Source: a virus | Virus record (IMG/VR): IMGVR_UViG_3300037851_000568 | Span: 10,139-74,138 of that record | Length of the DNA stretch: 64,000 nucleotides | Reading direction: 5' to 3' (one strand) | Shown: positions 32,280 to 36,671 of the stretch, piece by piece | Layout of the letters: each line of letters starts with the position of its first letter | Position numbering within the stretch: position 1 is the first letter of the stretch | Made by a program: the position numbers and the translations under genes | The notes under the pieces: model-generated | Told to the model about the DNA's origin: nothing | Database searches by the model: none | The model's input: the letters and a program-made list of their open reading frames with translations, nothing else

Positions 32280-32353
32280 GCGGGTGTCGTTCAATGGCAG
32301 GACCTCAGTCTTCCAAACTGAAGACGCCGGTTCGATTCCGGTCACCCGCTCCA
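32280..32353 (+). tRNA. trnG: tRNA-Gly(TCC)
   Basis: Cloverleaf, TTCGA, CCA. Confidence 0.92.
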
Positions 32354-32354
32354 C

Positions 32355-32428
32355 AGGCCGGTGGTGAAGTGGTATCACGACTGTTTCCAAATCAGTAGTC
32401 CGGGGTTCGATCCCCCGCTGGCCTGCCA
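32355..32428 (+). tRNA. trnW: tRNA-Trp(CCA)
   Basis: Cloverleaf, G73, CCA. Confidence 0.88.
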
Positions 32429-32435
32429 AAAATTT

Positions 32436-32510
32436 GGTCCCGGAGTGTGACGGACAGCACGACACCCTGTCACGGTGTTAGAACGGGTTCGACTCCCGTC
32501 GGGATCGCCA
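32436..32510 (+). tRNA. trnD: tRNA-Asp(GTC)
   Basis: Cloverleaf, G73, CCA. Confidence 0.92.
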
Positions 32511-32511
32511 C

Positions 32512-32586
32512 TGGGGCGTGGTGTAACCGGTAGCACGTCTGACTCTGAATCAGAAAATCAAGGTTCGAGTCCTTGCGCCCCAGCCA
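32512..32586 (+). tRNA. trnQ: tRNA-Gln(CTG)
   Basis: U1:A72, G73, CCA. Confidence 0.92.
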
Positions 32587-32590
32587 ACTT

Positions 32591-32666
32591 GGACGACTAG
32601 CTAATCTAGTGAAAGCGCCGGTCTGAAAAGCCGGAGAGCCCGGAGCGAAACCGGGGTCGTCCACCA
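32591..32666 (+). tRNA. trnF: tRNA-Phe(GAA), T-loop AGCGAAA
   Basis: Cloverleaf, CCA. Confidence 0.85.
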
Positions 32667-32675
32667 AAAATTCGA

Positions 32676-32753
32676 CGCAGGGGAGAGGCACCCGGTGACC
32701 TCACCAGGCTCATAACCTGGGGCTTGTGGGTTCAAATCCCATCCCTGCTACCA
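32676..32753 (+). tRNA. trnM: tRNA-fMet-like (CAT)
   Basis: C1:U72 mismatch; CAT anticodon; only two of the three initiator GC pairs. Confidence 0.8.
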
Positions 32754-32754
32754 A

Positions 32755-32828
32755 GGGCCCGTCGTCCAACGGTAAGACACCTGCCTTGCAAGCAGGGAAT
32801 AGGAGTTCAACTCTCCTCGGGTCCACCA
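32755..32828 (+). tRNA. trnA: tRNA-Ala(TGC)
   Basis: G3:U70, CCA. Confidence 0.92.
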
Positions 32829-32834
32829 AATTTC

Positions 32835-32871
32835 GGGTGTGCTTGAATGTGGGAACGCTAGACTGTAAACT
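32835..32871 (+). pseudogene. 5' half of a disrupted tRNA-Tyr (overlaps a TTGAAT-N17-TAAACT promoter)
   Basis: GGGTGTG acceptor strand and CTGTAAA anticodon loop; pairs with CGCGCCC at 33513-33519. Confidence 0.5.
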
Positions 32872-32877
32872 ATCTTT

Positions 32878-33381
32878 ATGCCAGCTTTCGCGTCTTTAGA
32901 GCAACGATTCTGGTCGAAGGTCAAGAAGTCCGAATCCGGTTGCTGGTTGTGGATGGGGAGTCGGTCCAAATCTGGGTACGGATGGATTCATCTCGGAGGA
33001 AACCCGTACAAGGGCACCCGAAAAGGCGGAAGGGCGCATCGTGTCTCATGGGAGTTTGCTTTCGGCTCCATCCCCGATGGGCTAGATGTCCTTCACAAGT
33101 GCGATAATCCTCCATGCGTTCGCCCGGATCATCTCTTCCTCGGAAACGACTCCTCAAACGTACGGGACATGATCGAGAAGGGGAGGGCGTGGTTCCAGAC
33201 CCAACCCGGAGTAGCTCCTCGTGGGGAGAAAAATGGAAGGGCCAAGATGACGTGGAGAAGAGTTCGCCGCATCCGAAACCTGCATCGAAAAGGTGTTTCT
33301 CTTCGTGAGCTTGGGAGGATGTTTAGGCTCGACTTCTCTACAGTTGGAAGCATTGTTCGCAGGGAGACGTGGAAGGAATAA
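32878..33381 (+). CDS. free-standing HNH homing endonuclease (HNH + C-terminal HTH)
   Basis: FWSKV..GCWLW..GYG..AHRVSW..HKCDNPPCVRPDHL..N..DM..KGR, GEKNGRAK. Confidence 0.9.
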   Translation: MPAFASLEQRFWSKVKKSESGCWLWMGSRSKSGYGWIHLGGNPYKGTRKGGRAHRVSWEFAFGSIPDGLDVLHKCDNPPCVRPDHLFLGNDSSNVRDMIEKGRAWFQTQPGVAPRGEKNGRAKMTWRRVRRIRNLHRKGVSLRELGRMFRLDFSTVGSIVRRETWKE

Positions 33382-33474
33382 GCCGGGGCTGGGCAGGTCT
33401 AGGACAAAGAGCCCATCTGCCTGTAAAGCAGACGCCTTCGGGTTGTGTGGGTGCGAATCCCACCTCCGGCACCA
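33382..33474 (+). tRNA. trnY: tRNA-Tyr(GTA), enlarged D-loop, T-loop TGCGAAT
   Basis: TCTGC-CTGTAAA-GCAGA, long variable arm, CCA; starts immediately after the HNH stop. Confidence 0.85.
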
Positions 33475-33523
33475 AAACTCGTGCCCTTGTGGATAGGCGG
33501 TTCGATTCCTCACGCGCCCACCA
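33475..33523 (+). pseudogene. 3' half of a disrupted tRNA (T-arm remnant, acceptor strand, ACCA)
   Basis: GGTTCGATTCC...CGCGCCC-A-CCA with no 5' half adjacent. Confidence 0.55.
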
Positions 33524-33533
33524 AAGACTTCGC

Positions 33534-33601
33534 GGCTCGACGCGATCCTGAAAGACGTGAACAGGGATACCGAAGGAAATGTTGGCCCTGCGCGTCGAGC
33601 C
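33534..33601 (+). ncRNA. small unclassified structured RNA
   Basis: Perfect 11-bp helix GGCTCGACGCG/CGCGTCGAGCC between tRNAs. Confidence 0.45.
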
Positions 33602-33606
33602 CGTAC

Positions 33607-33680
33607 TGCCCTGTCATCTAACGGTAGGATGCTGGTCCTTGAAACCGGTCATGAGCGTTCGAGTCGCTCCGGGGCAACCA
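33607..33680 (+). tRNA. trnQ: tRNA-Gln(TTG) with C33
   Basis: U1:A72; loop CC-TTG-AA; CCA. Confidence 0.8.
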
Positions 33681-33688
33681 ATCTTTCT

Positions 33689-33763
33689 GGGGGAGTAGTC
33701 GAGCAGCAAGACGCCTCGTTGCCAACGAGGAGATCGCGGGGGCGGAACCCGTCTCCCCCTCCA
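33689..33763 (+). tRNA. trnG: tRNA-Gly(GCC), T-loop GGCGGAA
   Basis: Cloverleaf, U73, CCA. Confidence 0.85.
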
Positions 33764-33764
33764 A

Positions 33765-33839
33765 CGGCCCGTAGCTCAACGGTCAGAGCACTCGGTTGAT
33801 AACCGAGCGACGAAGGTTCGACTCCTTCTGGGCCGACCA
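33765..33839 (+). tRNA. trnI: tRNA-Ile(GAT)
   Basis: Cloverleaf, CCA. Confidence 0.92.
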
Positions 33840-33850
33840 GATTTCTACAT

Positions 33851-33927
33851 GGTGGCCATGGTGTAGTAGCTCTGCACGCCTGACTGTCACTCAGGAGGTA
33901 CGGGGGCGGAACCCGTTGGTCACCCCA
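33851..33927 (+). tRNA. tRNA with a His-type acceptor (G-1:C73) and Asp anticodon GTC
   Basis: G-GTGGCCA/TGGTCAC-C-CCA; CCTGA-CT-GTC-AC-TCAGG; T-loop GGCGGAA. Confidence 0.8.
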
Positions 33928-33933
33928 AAATTC

Positions 33934-34008
33934 CGGGACGTAGGGGAATGGTACCCCGCCTCTTTGGGGTAGAGGAAGTCGCGAGTTCGATTCTCGCCGT
34001 CCCGACCA
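33934..34008 (+). tRNA. trnP: tRNA-Pro(GGG)
   Basis: C1:G72, CCA. Confidence 0.92.
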
Positions 34009-34009
34009 C

Positions 34010-34083
34010 GCCCGCATAGGTCAGAGGCAGACCGCCAGCATGACACGCTGGAAACGGAGGTTCGATTCCTCCTGTGGGCACCA
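34010..34083 (+). tRNA. trnV: tRNA-Val(GAC)
   Basis: Cloverleaf, CCA. Confidence 0.9.
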
Positions 34084-34086
34084 CTA

Positions 34087-34160
34087 GCCGGTGTAGGATA
34101 ACGGCAGTCCACCAACTTGGTAAGTTGGGAGAGCGGGTTCGACTCCCGCCATCGGCTCCA
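34087..34160 (+). tRNA. trnT: tRNA-Thr(GGT)
   Basis: Cloverleaf, CCA. Confidence 0.92.
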
Positions 34161-34163
34161 CCT

Positions 34164-34239
34164 GCTGGCGTAGCTCAACTGGTAGAGCACCTGTTTTGTA
34201 AACAGGCGGTTGCCCGTTCAACCCGGGTCGCCAGCTCCA
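34164..34239 (+). tRNA. trnT: tRNA-Thr(TGT)
   Basis: Cloverleaf, CCA. Confidence 0.92.
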
Positions 34240-34266
34240 ATAAAAAAGCCCTCCGACAGGGAGGGC
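34240..34266 (-). terminator. minus-strand intrinsic terminator inside the tRNA array
   Basis: Minus strand reads GCCCTCC-CTGTC-GGAGGGC-TTTTTTAT. Confidence 0.6.
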
Positions 34267-34310
34267 CAAAGCTGGGTTGTCCACTAGGGACTGGACCAGC
34301 AGTATATCAC

Positions 34311-34384
34311 GCCGCTCTGGTGCAACAGCAGCACGCCGGTCTCATAAGCCGGAAATCCCGGGGCAGCTCCGGGGGGCGGTACCA
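34311..34384 (+). tRNA. tRNA-Met/Ile2(CAT), T-loop GGCAGCT
   Basis: Cloverleaf, CCA. Confidence 0.8.
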
Positions 34385-34385
34385 C

Positions 34386-34481
34386 GGAGGGGTAAGCGGG
34401 TGGGAACCCGCCGCCGTCTCGAAATCGGATGGCACCCGAGATTCAACCGGGTGTGGGGTTCGACTCCTCACCCCTCCTCCA
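34386..34481 (+). tRNA. trnS: tRNA-Ser(CGA)
   Basis: Long variable arm; U73; CCA. Confidence 0.85.
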
Positions 34482-34482
34482 C

Positions 34483-34572
34483 GGAGACGAAGGCAGTCAG
34501 CGTGCCGCAGCGGCTTGAACCCGCTTGCCCGGCCAGTCCGGGTCGCGTGTGCAACTCACGCCGTCTCCTCCA
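34483..34572 (+). tRNA. trnS: tRNA-Ser(TGA), T-loop TGCAACT
   Basis: Long variable arm; U73; CCA. Confidence 0.85.
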
Positions 34573-34582
34573 AAACATTCAC

Positions 34583-34668
34583 GGAGGCGTTGGGCATTGG
34601 CAGGCCCACTTCCTTGGAAAGGAAGCGTCGTAACTGGCGTGCGCGTTCGACTCGCGCCGCCTCCGCCA
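34583..34668 (+). tRNA. trnS: tRNA-Ser(GGA)
   Basis: Long variable arm; G73; CCA. Confidence 0.9.
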
Positions 34669-34669
34669 T

Positions 34670-34755
34670 GGAGAGGTAGGCTAATTGGTAAGCCACCACT
34701 TTGCTAAAGTGGCGCTGTAAAAGGCTTGCGGGTTCGAGCCCCGCCCTCTCCGCCA
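34670..34755 (+). tRNA. trnS: tRNA-Ser(GCT)
   Basis: Long variable arm; G73; CCA. Confidence 0.9.
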
Positions 34756-34814
34756 TCAAGAACAAAGGGTCCTGATCAGGATAGCGTGCTCAGCACGATG
34801 GTCGGGCCAAGAAT

Positions 34815-34888
34815 GGACGCGTGGCCAAATAGCAAGGCACCCGTTTGCAAAGCGGGTAGTGCAGGTGCAAGTCCTGCCGCGTCCTCCA
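34815..34888 (+). tRNA. trnC: tRNA-Cys(GCA), T-loop TGCAAGT
   Basis: U73; CCA. Confidence 0.88.
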
Positions 34889-34895
34889 AATATTT

Positions 34896-34972
34896 GCCGG
34901 GGTAGCTCATTTTAGTAGAGCGCCTGCTTCGTAAGCAGGAGGTGGCGGGGGCAGAGCCCGCCCTCGGCTCCA
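34896..34972 (+). tRNA. trnT: tRNA-Thr(CGT), T-loop GGCAGAG
   Basis: Cloverleaf, CCA. Confidence 0.85.
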
Positions 34973-34973
34973 T

Positions 34974-35047
34974 TCCAGCGTGAGGTAATGGTAGCCTGAC
35001 GGATTGTTAATCCGTTCGCGGTGGTTCGACCCCACCCGCTGGAGCCA
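34974..35047 (+). tRNA. trnN: tRNA-Asn(GTT)
   Basis: U1:A72, G73, CCA. Confidence 0.92.
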
Positions 35048-35052
35048 ATCTT

Positions 35053-35124
35053 GTCCCCGTGGCCGAGCAGAGAGGCTCCCGTCTTCTAAACGGGCCGACG
35101 TGGGCGCAAATCCCACCGGGGATA
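35053..35124 (+). tRNA. trnR: tRNA-Arg(TCT), T-loop CGCAAAT, no encoded CCA
   Basis: Cloverleaf; the next tRNA starts at 35126. Confidence 0.82.
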
Positions 35125-35125
35125 C

Positions 35126-35199
35126 GGCCTCGTCGTCTATCGGAAGGACGCCGCCCTCTCAAGGCGGAAAGGTGGGTTCGACTCCCATCGAGGCTGCCA
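35126..35199 (+). tRNA. trnE: tRNA-Glu(CTC)
   Basis: Cloverleaf, G73, CCA. Confidence 0.92.
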
Positions 35200-35204
35200 A
35201 TCTT

Positions 35205-35279
35205 GGGCCGCTCGTCTACGAGGTAGGATCTCTGGTTTTCACCCAGAAGAACGGGGTGCGACTCCCCGGCGGCCTACCA
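35205..35279 (+). tRNA. trnE: tRNA-Glu(TTC), T-loop TGCGACT
   Basis: Cloverleaf, A73, CCA. Confidence 0.87.
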
Positions 35280-35280
35280 C

Positions 35281-35354
35281 GCCTCCGTAGTCTAACAGGA
35301 AGAGACCCGGTTTTTACCCGGGGGATGGAGGTGCAAATCCTCCCGGAGGCACCA
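35281..35354 (+). tRNA. trnK: tRNA-Lys(TTT), T-loop TGCAAAT
   Basis: Cloverleaf, CCA. Confidence 0.87.
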
Positions 35355-35366
35355 ACAAAAATATTC

Positions 35367-35441
35367 GCCTTCGTAGGTCAATTGGAAGACGACCTCGCTC
35401 TTAACGAGGGGATCTCGGTTCGAGTCCGAGCGAAGGCACCA
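35367..35441 (+). tRNA. trnK: tRNA-Lys(CTT)
   Basis: Cloverleaf, CCA. Confidence 0.92.
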
Positions 35442-35446
35442 ATCTT

Positions 35447-35529
35447 GCCCCGGTGCTTGGAATTGGCATACAGCCCTCACTCAAAACGAGGGGCCGAAAG
35501 GCGTGTGGGTTCGACTCCCTCCCGGGGCA
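35447..35529 (+). tRNA. trnL: tRNA-Leu(CAA), followed by CCG rather than CCA
   Basis: Long variable arm; A73. Confidence 0.87.
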
Positions 35530-35533
35530 CCGT

Positions 35534-35617
35534 GGGCCTCTGATGGAACAGCAGACATGCCGGTCTTAGAAGCCGGTGCCGAAAGGCGTTGGGGTGCGAC
35601 TCCCCCGAGGCCCACCA
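35534..35617 (+). tRNA. trnL: tRNA-Leu(TAG), T-loop TGCGACT
   Basis: Long variable arm; CCA. Confidence 0.88.
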
Positions 35618-35627
35618 AAACATTCAT

Positions 35628-35713
35628 GCGCGGGTGGCGGAACTGGCAGACGCGCTGGTCTCAGAAGCCAGTGGGTAACACCCGTGGAGGTTCGATTCCT
35701 CTCCCGCGCACCA
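35628..35713 (+). tRNA. trnL: tRNA-Leu(CAG)
   Basis: Long variable arm; CCA. Confidence 0.92.
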
Positions 35714-35714
35714 A

Positions 35715-35788
35715 GCCCTCTTGGCGTAATGGCAGCGCACCTAGCTTACACCTAGGCGGCGGGGGTTCGATTCCCTCAGAGGGCACCA
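35715..35788 (+). tRNA. trnV: tRNA-Val(TAC)
   Basis: Cloverleaf, CCA. Confidence 0.92.
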
Positions 35789-35794
35789 ATATTT

Positions 35795-35878
35795 GCAGCC
35801 GTGGCGAAATGGCAGACGCGTCCGTTTGAGGGGCGGATGGGGAAACCCGTGGAGGTTCGACTCCTCTCGGCTGCACCA
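35795..35878 (+). tRNA. trnL: tRNA-Leu(GAG)
   Basis: Long variable arm; CCA. Confidence 0.92.
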
Positions 35879-35885
35879 AATTCAA

Positions 35886-35961
35886 CGGGCCATGGGGTAA
35901 TCGGCAACCCGCCTGCTTCGGGAGCAGGAACATCCCGGTTCGAGTCCGGGTGGCCCGACCA
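35886..35961 (+). tRNA. trnP: tRNA-Pro(CGG)
   Basis: C1:G72; CCA. Confidence 0.92.
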
Positions 35962-35969
35962 ATCTTCAT

Positions 35970-36045
35970 GGGCCGGTAGCTCAGCGGCAGGAGCGGCCAG
36001 CTCATAACTGGACGGTAGCGGGATCGTCACCCGCACGGCCCACCA
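35970..36045 (+). tRNA. tRNA-Ile2/Met(CAT), T-loop ATCGTCA
   Basis: Cloverleaf, CCA. Confidence 0.82.
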
Positions 36046-36046
36046 A

Positions 36047-36122
36047 CAGGCTCAGGGGTAGATAGCGACCCGCCTCGCTTGGAACGAGGAGAAGGAACGT
36101 GCAAGTCGTTCGAGCCTGACCA
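36047..36122 (+). tRNA. trnP: tRNA-Pro(TGG), A37, T-loop TGCAAGT
   Basis: C1:G72; CCA. Confidence 0.87.
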
Positions 36123-36128
36123 AATATT

Positions 36129-36432
36129 GGAGCGTTCGCTGTCGCTGCGGAGGTAGCAGTACCTCCTAGCTCATGGGACAACGGCCCAAACGAGTATCCG
36201 TAAGTCTCCAGCGCCCACACCCGCGAAGGGGCGCAAGAGGCGAGGCAGGGCGGTGGCATACGCCCGTCACGACCTGTACCTCGGAGATGATCTTGGCCGG
36301 GTCGCCGCAATAAGGGTTTGGGGTAAATCCTGCCGCGAAAGCGAGACGGGGCATGAAAGGTAGCGGGTGCCACGGCGACTAAACCCCGCAGCAGGTGAGT
36401 GGATAGGCAAAAGCGAGGTCAGCGAACGCTCC
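36129..36432 (+). ncRNA. raiA-motif-like large structured ncRNA
   Basis: 13-bp terminal helix; AAACGA-TATCC-GTAAG, TCCTGCCG..GCGAGA, CAGCAGGTGAGT-GGATA, CAAA..AGGTC; crossing (pseudoknot) pairings. Confidence 0.75.
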
Positions 36433-36437
36433 TTTAG

Positions 36438-36511
36438 GCCCCCGTGGTGTAGCAGAGGCACAGCTGTTTCCTAAACAGCAAGGTCCGGCGCAACTCCGGA
36501 CGGGGGCTCCA
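36438..36511 (+). tRNA. trnR: tRNA-Arg(CCT), T-loop CGCAACT
   Basis: Cloverleaf, U73, CCA. Confidence 0.85.
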
Positions 36512-36518
36512 AACATTC

Positions 36519-36593
36519 GCCCCGGTAGTGAAATGGACATCACGGCTCCCTCCGAAGGAGTCATTGCGAGTTCGAGTCTCGCCTGGGGCACCA
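36519..36593 (+). tRNA. trnR: tRNA-Arg(CCG)
   Basis: Cloverleaf, CCA. Confidence 0.92.
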
Positions 36594-36594
36594 T

Positions 36595-36671
36595 CTCCCC
36601 GTCCCGTAACTGGACAACGGTCCCGGCTACGAACCGGGCACATACAGGTTCGAGTCCTGTCGGGGAGACCA
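36595..36671 (+). tRNA. trnR: tRNA-Arg(ACG)
   Basis: Cloverleaf, CCA. Confidence 0.92.

Follow-up and report, generated by a model that had tools for sequence, protein, structure and literature searches.

A phage tRNA gene that reads as tRNA-Asp by its anticodon is, by its body, its genomic position, and its orthologs, a tRNA-His gene, and the single base responsible most probably represents a real, very recent, and non-adaptive single-nucleotide variant in an accessory tRNA gene. The gene is located in a tRNA array within the window, i.e., the whole stretch of 64,000 nucleotides analyzed here. Its third anticodon base, C at 33888, occurs only in the probable source run, and all related phages as well as an otherwise identical sequence from another sample carry G at this position. 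Therefore, the annotation label should be tRNA-His (anticodon variant) and not tRNA-Asp.

The tRNA Array Lacks a His Decoder

The virus record has a size of 86.9 kb and is ~37% complete according to the CheckV estimate. Directly upstream of the tRNA array, a T4-type major capsid gene (Pfam Gp23) and an S77 prohead protease are encoded, and the phage is an uncultured freshwater T4-like phage. ARAGORN and a covariance model together define the array (Table 1), which covers 19 amino acids. The original prediction had stated that His is the only amino acid missing, and this is correct once the four tRNAs detected only by the covariance model are counted; for the ARAGORN calls alone it is not, as Tyr is absent from them as well. 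Among the tRNAs of the whole 86.9-kb record there is none with a GTG anticodon, and no tRNA is located outside the array.

Table 1. Features in and around the tRNA array, in positions of the window; L002 and L003 are relatives from an IMG/VR pattern scan.
Feature	Position	Strand	Remarks
tRNA array, 39 tRNA genes	32280..36671	+	35 by ARAGORN and 4 by covariance model only
tRNA-Asp(GTC), canonical	32436..32510	+	G73, T at -1; 100% identical in L003
HNH_3 (PF13392) ORF, 167 aa	32878-33381		within array, between tRNA-Ala and tRNA-Tyr
tRNA-Tyr(GTA), class II	~33383-33474		covariance model only
tRNA-like 3' fragment	~33485-33523		CCACCA end
tRNA-Ile(GAT)	33765..33839	+	upstream neighbor defining the syntenic slot
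tRNA-His gene, anticodon GTC in this allele	33851..33927	+	G-1 to encoded CCA; covariance model only; Rfam RF00005; 76/77 bases as in L002 and L003
Encoded G-1	33851	+	complementary to C73; read from sequence
Anticodon GTC	33886..33888	+	position 36 = 33888: C here, G in every relative
Discriminator C73	33924	+	only one in the 39-tRNA array, from a table of -1 and position 73 bases
tRNA-Pro(GGG)	33934..34008	+	downstream neighbor of the slot; 100% identical in L003
tRNA-Thr(CGT)	34896-34972		covariance model only
tRNA-Arg(TCT)	35053-35125		only array tRNA without encoded CCA directly 3'
tRNA-Glu(TTC)	35205-35279		covariance model only
raiA motif RNA, sub-threshold match	36132-36429		between tRNA-Met and tRNA-Arg

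Several other features of the array are recorded here. In L002 and L003, tRNA-Ala is directly followed by tRNA-Tyr and the HNH_3 gene is missing. The match to the raiA motif reaches 41.4 bits at a gathering score of 101.3 (E 6.9e-8). The tRNA-Arg(TCT) is followed by CGG, the first base of which is the -1 base of tRNA-Glu(CTC) starting at 35126.

Structure of the His-Type Gene

The Rfam tRNA model matches the gene over its full length (1-71) with 45.5 bits at a gathering score of 29 and an E value of 2.4e-9 on an 88-nt stretch, and ARAGORN makes no call at 33851-33927. In the acceptor stem, GTGGCCA (33852-33858) pairs with TGGTCAC (33917-33923), including one G:T pair, the encoded G-1 is placed opposite C73, and CCA is encoded at 33925-33927. 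The anticodon stem consists of CCTGA/TCAGG and encloses the loop C-T-G-T-C-A-C. The original prediction of a tRNA-His body carrying an Asp anticodon, with one base making the difference, is thereby borne out, as are its reading of the acceptor stem and the loop and the presence of a normal tRNA-Asp elsewhere in the array. Its placement of the anticodon at 33885-33887 is to be corrected by one position, the odd base being the C at 33888. In a single-sequence minimum-free-energy fold (z-score -1.5), the 8-bp acceptor stem and the T arm are formed and the anticodon arm adopts an alternative register; next to the covariance model, this fold carries no useful information.

The canonical tRNA elbow (G18 G19; T54 U55 C56 ... 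A58) is not found in this gene, the D loop AGTAGCTCT being devoid of G18 G19 and the T loop GGCGGAA of T54, U55, and A58. However, this is no peculiarity of the His-type gene. In 13 tRNAs of the array (window 32591-36511), i.e., those for Phe, Tyr, Gly-GCC, His, Met (34311), Ser-TGA, Cys, Thr-CGT, Arg-TCT, Glu-TTC, Lys-TTT, Leu-TAG, and Arg-CCT, G55 (T loop NGC...) occurs together with AG for GG in the D loop, and the array tRNAs with U55 (TTC) keep GG in the D loop. The combination of G54 with G58 is found in the tRNAs for His, Gly-GCC, Met (34311), and Thr-CGT. Since the odd loops are common to 13 tRNAs, they are not signs of decay, and the A18/G55 pattern also persists in the diverged orthologs L013 and L030. 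It is this elbow class that causes ARAGORN to miss the His gene; four of its members are missed by this program, and this class of phage tRNAs with a rewired elbow thus escapes standard tRNA finders.

Orthologs in Related Phages Encode GTG

Two sets of relatives were obtained, L002 and L003 from a pattern scan of IMG/VR and L013 and L030 from a metagenome scan in which the anticodon was left free. L002 and L003 possess the same 77 nt with a single difference, which is the third anticodon base G (GTG), and their gene occupies the same slot as in the window, Gly(GCC)-Ile(GAT)-[His]-Pro(GGG). Each of them retains the canonical Asp(GTC) too, with 100% identity to that of the window. They are not clones of the window, as their spacers differ and about half of the array tRNAs have unrelated sequences. 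In the diverged orthologs L013 and L030, G-1, C73, and GTG are likewise present, with differences in the D loop, the T loop, and position 37. In addition, both show a compensatory change of A7:T66 to G7:C66, so that selection acts on the gene at the RNA level.

Most matches of the metagenome pattern scan were tRNA-Gln genes of bacteria with the same anticodon stem, and the only His genes among them were L013, L030, and L022. None of these three carries GTC, and no other GTC-bearing copy was encountered in the metagenome scan with free anticodon. Anticodon stem and variable loop of the gene recur unchanged in a canonical bacterial tRNA-His (L042, from a Vicinamibacterales MAG). A D-arm pattern scan of viral contigs yielded no further family members but only chance matches in coding DNA, BLAST searches of GenBank phages and complete E. 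coli genomes with the array (megablast, 24 kb) or the 77-nt gene as query returned nothing informative, and an exact-protein search for other assemblies with the HNH protein and the major capsid protein encoded beside the array identified only Logan contigs of the source run itself (SRR12687606), one X1 contig agreeing with them in its length of 1382 nt. Judged from the comparison of these sequences, the gene is a tRNA-His kept by selection in which G36 is the ancestral base.

Comparison with L003 also reveals that the array is a mosaic. Between window 32280-35441 and L003 4113-7717, sequence identity is 97-100% for about half of the tRNAs (Gly, Trp, Asp, Ala, His, Pro, Val, Thr-GGT, Met, and several Ser), and those for Phe, Met, Tyr, Ile, Cys, Thr-CGT, Arg, Glu-TTC, and Lys-CTT share isotype and order without detectable similarity. 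At L003 6138-6505, the pair Ser(TGA)-Ser(GGA) is tandemly duplicated, and the window has Ser(TGA), Ser(GGA), and Ser(GCT) there.

The homologs in related phages, which the original prediction had named as a check, bear directly on two of the explanations it had offered, an edited and a decoy tRNA-His. In the first case, GUC would be corrected to GUG in the RNA by anticodon editing; in the second, the tRNA might serve as a decoy for an anticodon-loop nuclease of the host. Some anticodon nucleases attack tRNAs whose anticodon is GUN, and this would suit a decoy. However, the relatives simply encode GTG, so that no editing is needed in this lineage, and neither an editing enzyme nor a defense context is seen. 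To our knowledge, there is no known chemistry for a C-to-G editing of anticodons. Although anticodon editing exists elsewhere, for example in the marsupial mitochondrial tRNA-Asp, where GCC is changed to GUC (PMC9976931), editing and decoy alike appear extremely improbable for the gene described here.

Only One Sample Carries C at 33888

Alleles of individual samples were read from Logan contigs, i.e., from assembled sequence rather than from counts of raw reads. In the probable source run (X1), a 341-nt contig with a k-mer depth of 5.13 covers 33853-34193 without any difference from the window and thus has C at 33888; the depth in this run is ~5-9. As C is present in a second assembly (Logan) of this run, it must come from the reads themselves and cannot be attributed to a single assembler, although the IMG contig and the Logan contig share the same reads and do not constitute independent data.

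A different base is found in the other samples. X2, a sample with another study code, provides a 1228-nt contig (depth 5) that covers 33400-34191 and equals the window at 791 of 792 bases, the sole difference being G at 33888. G is also present in a 37-kb contig of X3 (depth 37) and in X4, where A37 is in addition replaced by G. C is thus confined to the probable source run, and G is found in X2, X3, X4, L002, L003, L013, and L030. Position 37 (33889) is itself polymorphic in this tRNA-His family, with G37 instead of A37 in X4, L013, and L030. As X2 is otherwise identical, this phage genotype also occurs with GTG in another sample, and only one sample has C. On this pattern of bases, G is the ancestral state and C a private and very recent change.

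A private base in a sample of low coverage raises the question of whether it is an artefact of sequencing, library preparation, or low-depth consensus, the source phage really having GTG. Several points speak for this possibility. The k-mer depth of the source run is only ~5, and the sequence of the same phage in X2 departs from the window within 792 nt by its G alone. Position 33888 is part of an inverted-repeat loop, and the contigs of the source run break 5 nt upstream of it. Furthermore, the site was chosen from a very large scan because it looked anomalous, and such a selection enriches for errors. On the other side, both assemblies of the source reads give C. Logan contigs contain only 31-mers with two or more occurrences, so that all 31 words spanning the site have been seen repeatedly, and no G path is reported for X1. 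Moreover, identical independent miscalls forming the majority at ~5x are far rarer than real single-nucleotide variants between samples. We therefore regard an artefact as rather unlikely, albeit as an explanation that deserves some weight. Of the three options in the original prediction, that of a single-base change is left, be it a private real mutation or an error.

Two contigs of X1 (depths 8.8 and 5.1) overlap by exactly 30 nt (33853-33882) inside the tRNA, indicating that the 31-mer graph branches at 33852 or 33883. There is thus some heterogeneity in the source sample at this place, and a second variant may be present. As a possible origin of the mutation, gene conversion from the phage tRNA-Asp was considered; after the change the 7-nt loops of both tRNAs are identical, the flanking stems differ, and the converted tract would comprise one base.

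Identity Elements and Possible Decoding

If the C at 33888 is, as seems most probable, a real mutation, its consequences depend on how the two alleles are processed and charged. The normal allele would be transcribed together with the array and, following the rules for bacterial tRNA-His, RNase P would leave the encoded G-1 in place because it pairs with C73. The 87-kb record encodes no recognizable HisRS, AspRS, or Thg1, and charging would thus fall to the host. For HisRS, G-1:C73 is the major determinant and the anticodon a secondary one (PMC9976931), and the host enzyme would thus charge the normal allele via G-1:C73 with the GUG anticodon in a secondary role. The change from G to C at position 36 in the source-sample population would remove the only His decoder of the phage, and the C36 allele would be expected to read GAC/GAU. 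In a rough codon count, which includes spurious antisense ORFs of this 61% GC genome, Asp accounts for ~6% and His for ~3% of the codons.

The C36 allele has a hybrid identity, combining the His acceptor end (G-1:C73) with the Asp elements G34, U35, C36, and C38, plus G10. AspRS, however, uses G73 and G2:C71 (PMC9976931), and the allele has neither of them and carries an extra G-1. A tRNA with GUC in this context should be charged poorly by HisRS and AspRS alike, which might permit low-level Asp-to-His decoding or extra Asp decoding at most. As the host has a tRNA-His of its own, to which that of the phage is only an accessory, such a mutation would be tolerated.

It might be argued that the GTC allele is maintained and functional, either charged with His and used at Asp codons for programmed mistranslation, or as an alloacceptor shift providing a second tRNA-Asp. 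There are natural cases in which an anticodon shift has altered the identity of a tRNA (PMC3923123), and minihelices can acquire His acceptance through G-1:C73 alone (PMC9976931). In the present tRNA, the Asp determinants G10, G34, U35, C36, and C38 are already in place, and D stem and T stem are the same as in the tRNA-Asp of the phage. In contrast, the allele occurs in one sample only, with GTG in a near-identical strain and in all six other observations. A canonical tRNA-Asp is already available in the array, the only His decoder of the phage would be lost, the AspRS elements G73 and G2:C71 are absent, and the body shows no accompanying change as remoulding would predict. A maintained allele of either kind is therefore very unlikely. 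The original prediction had offered a natural Asp-to-His mistranslating tRNA as one option and had itself named GTG in reads or close relatives as a refutation; as relatives and the same phage in X2 do have GTG, an evolved and conserved mistranslator or decoy is not supported. A weaker version, in which the GTC allele is real, expressed, and at least partly charged with His, so that a polymorphic tRNA inserting His at Asp codons segregates in a freshwater phage population, is improbable, although with a slim chance of being correct.

Significance and Comparison With Known Systems

As it stands, a private one-base difference in a low-coverage metagenome contig is of little significance. The case illustrates that isotype calls based on the anticodon only can mislead and that synteny with relatives settles them quickly. 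If the variant should prove to be real and charged with His, it would constitute a rare natural case of a segregating sense-codon mistranslating tRNA in a virus and a handy natural substrate for studying how far G-1:C73 overrides the anticodon.

With bacterial-type tRNA-His the gene shares the encoded G-1, C73, an 8-bp acceptor helix, and the encoded CCA, as well as an anticodon stem CCUGA/UCAGG and a variable loop AGGU identical to those of L042, and the orthologs of its relatives have GUG. It differs from this type by C36 (GUC) in the present allele, by A18/G55 in place of G18/U55, as do 12 other tRNAs of this phage, and by G54/G58 in place of T54/A58. Similarity to tRNA-Asp comprises GUC, C38, and G10 as well as the loop CUGUCAC, the D stem, and the T stem, which are identical to those of the tRNA-Asp encoded by the phage itself. 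In contrast to tRNA-Asp, the gene has C73 and not G73, an extra G-1, and U2:A71 and not G2:C71, and it is not orthologous to the true tRNA-Asp at 32436.

The psu suppressor tRNAs of phage T4 are spontaneous anticodon mutants of tRNA genes, and they resemble the present case in that anticodon point mutations in accessory phage tRNA genes arise readily and are tolerated. However, the psu tRNAs decode stop codons and were obtained by laboratory selection, whereas the allele described here would read a sense codon of another amino acid and was sampled in nature. In alloacceptor shifts and remoulding (PMC3923123; PMC4783518), one anticodon substitution in a syntenic ortholog likewise changes the codon that is read, and the body of the tRNA keeps its old identity elements. 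Published alloacceptor shifts are fixed in species or lineages, whereas the shifted anticodon reported here is conserved neither across the lineage nor across samples; it is confined to a single metagenome sample of low coverage, and the same phage in another sample lacks it. As anticodon shifts are already known, the tRNA-His(GUC) allele of this phage is at best a new, unfixed instance of them.
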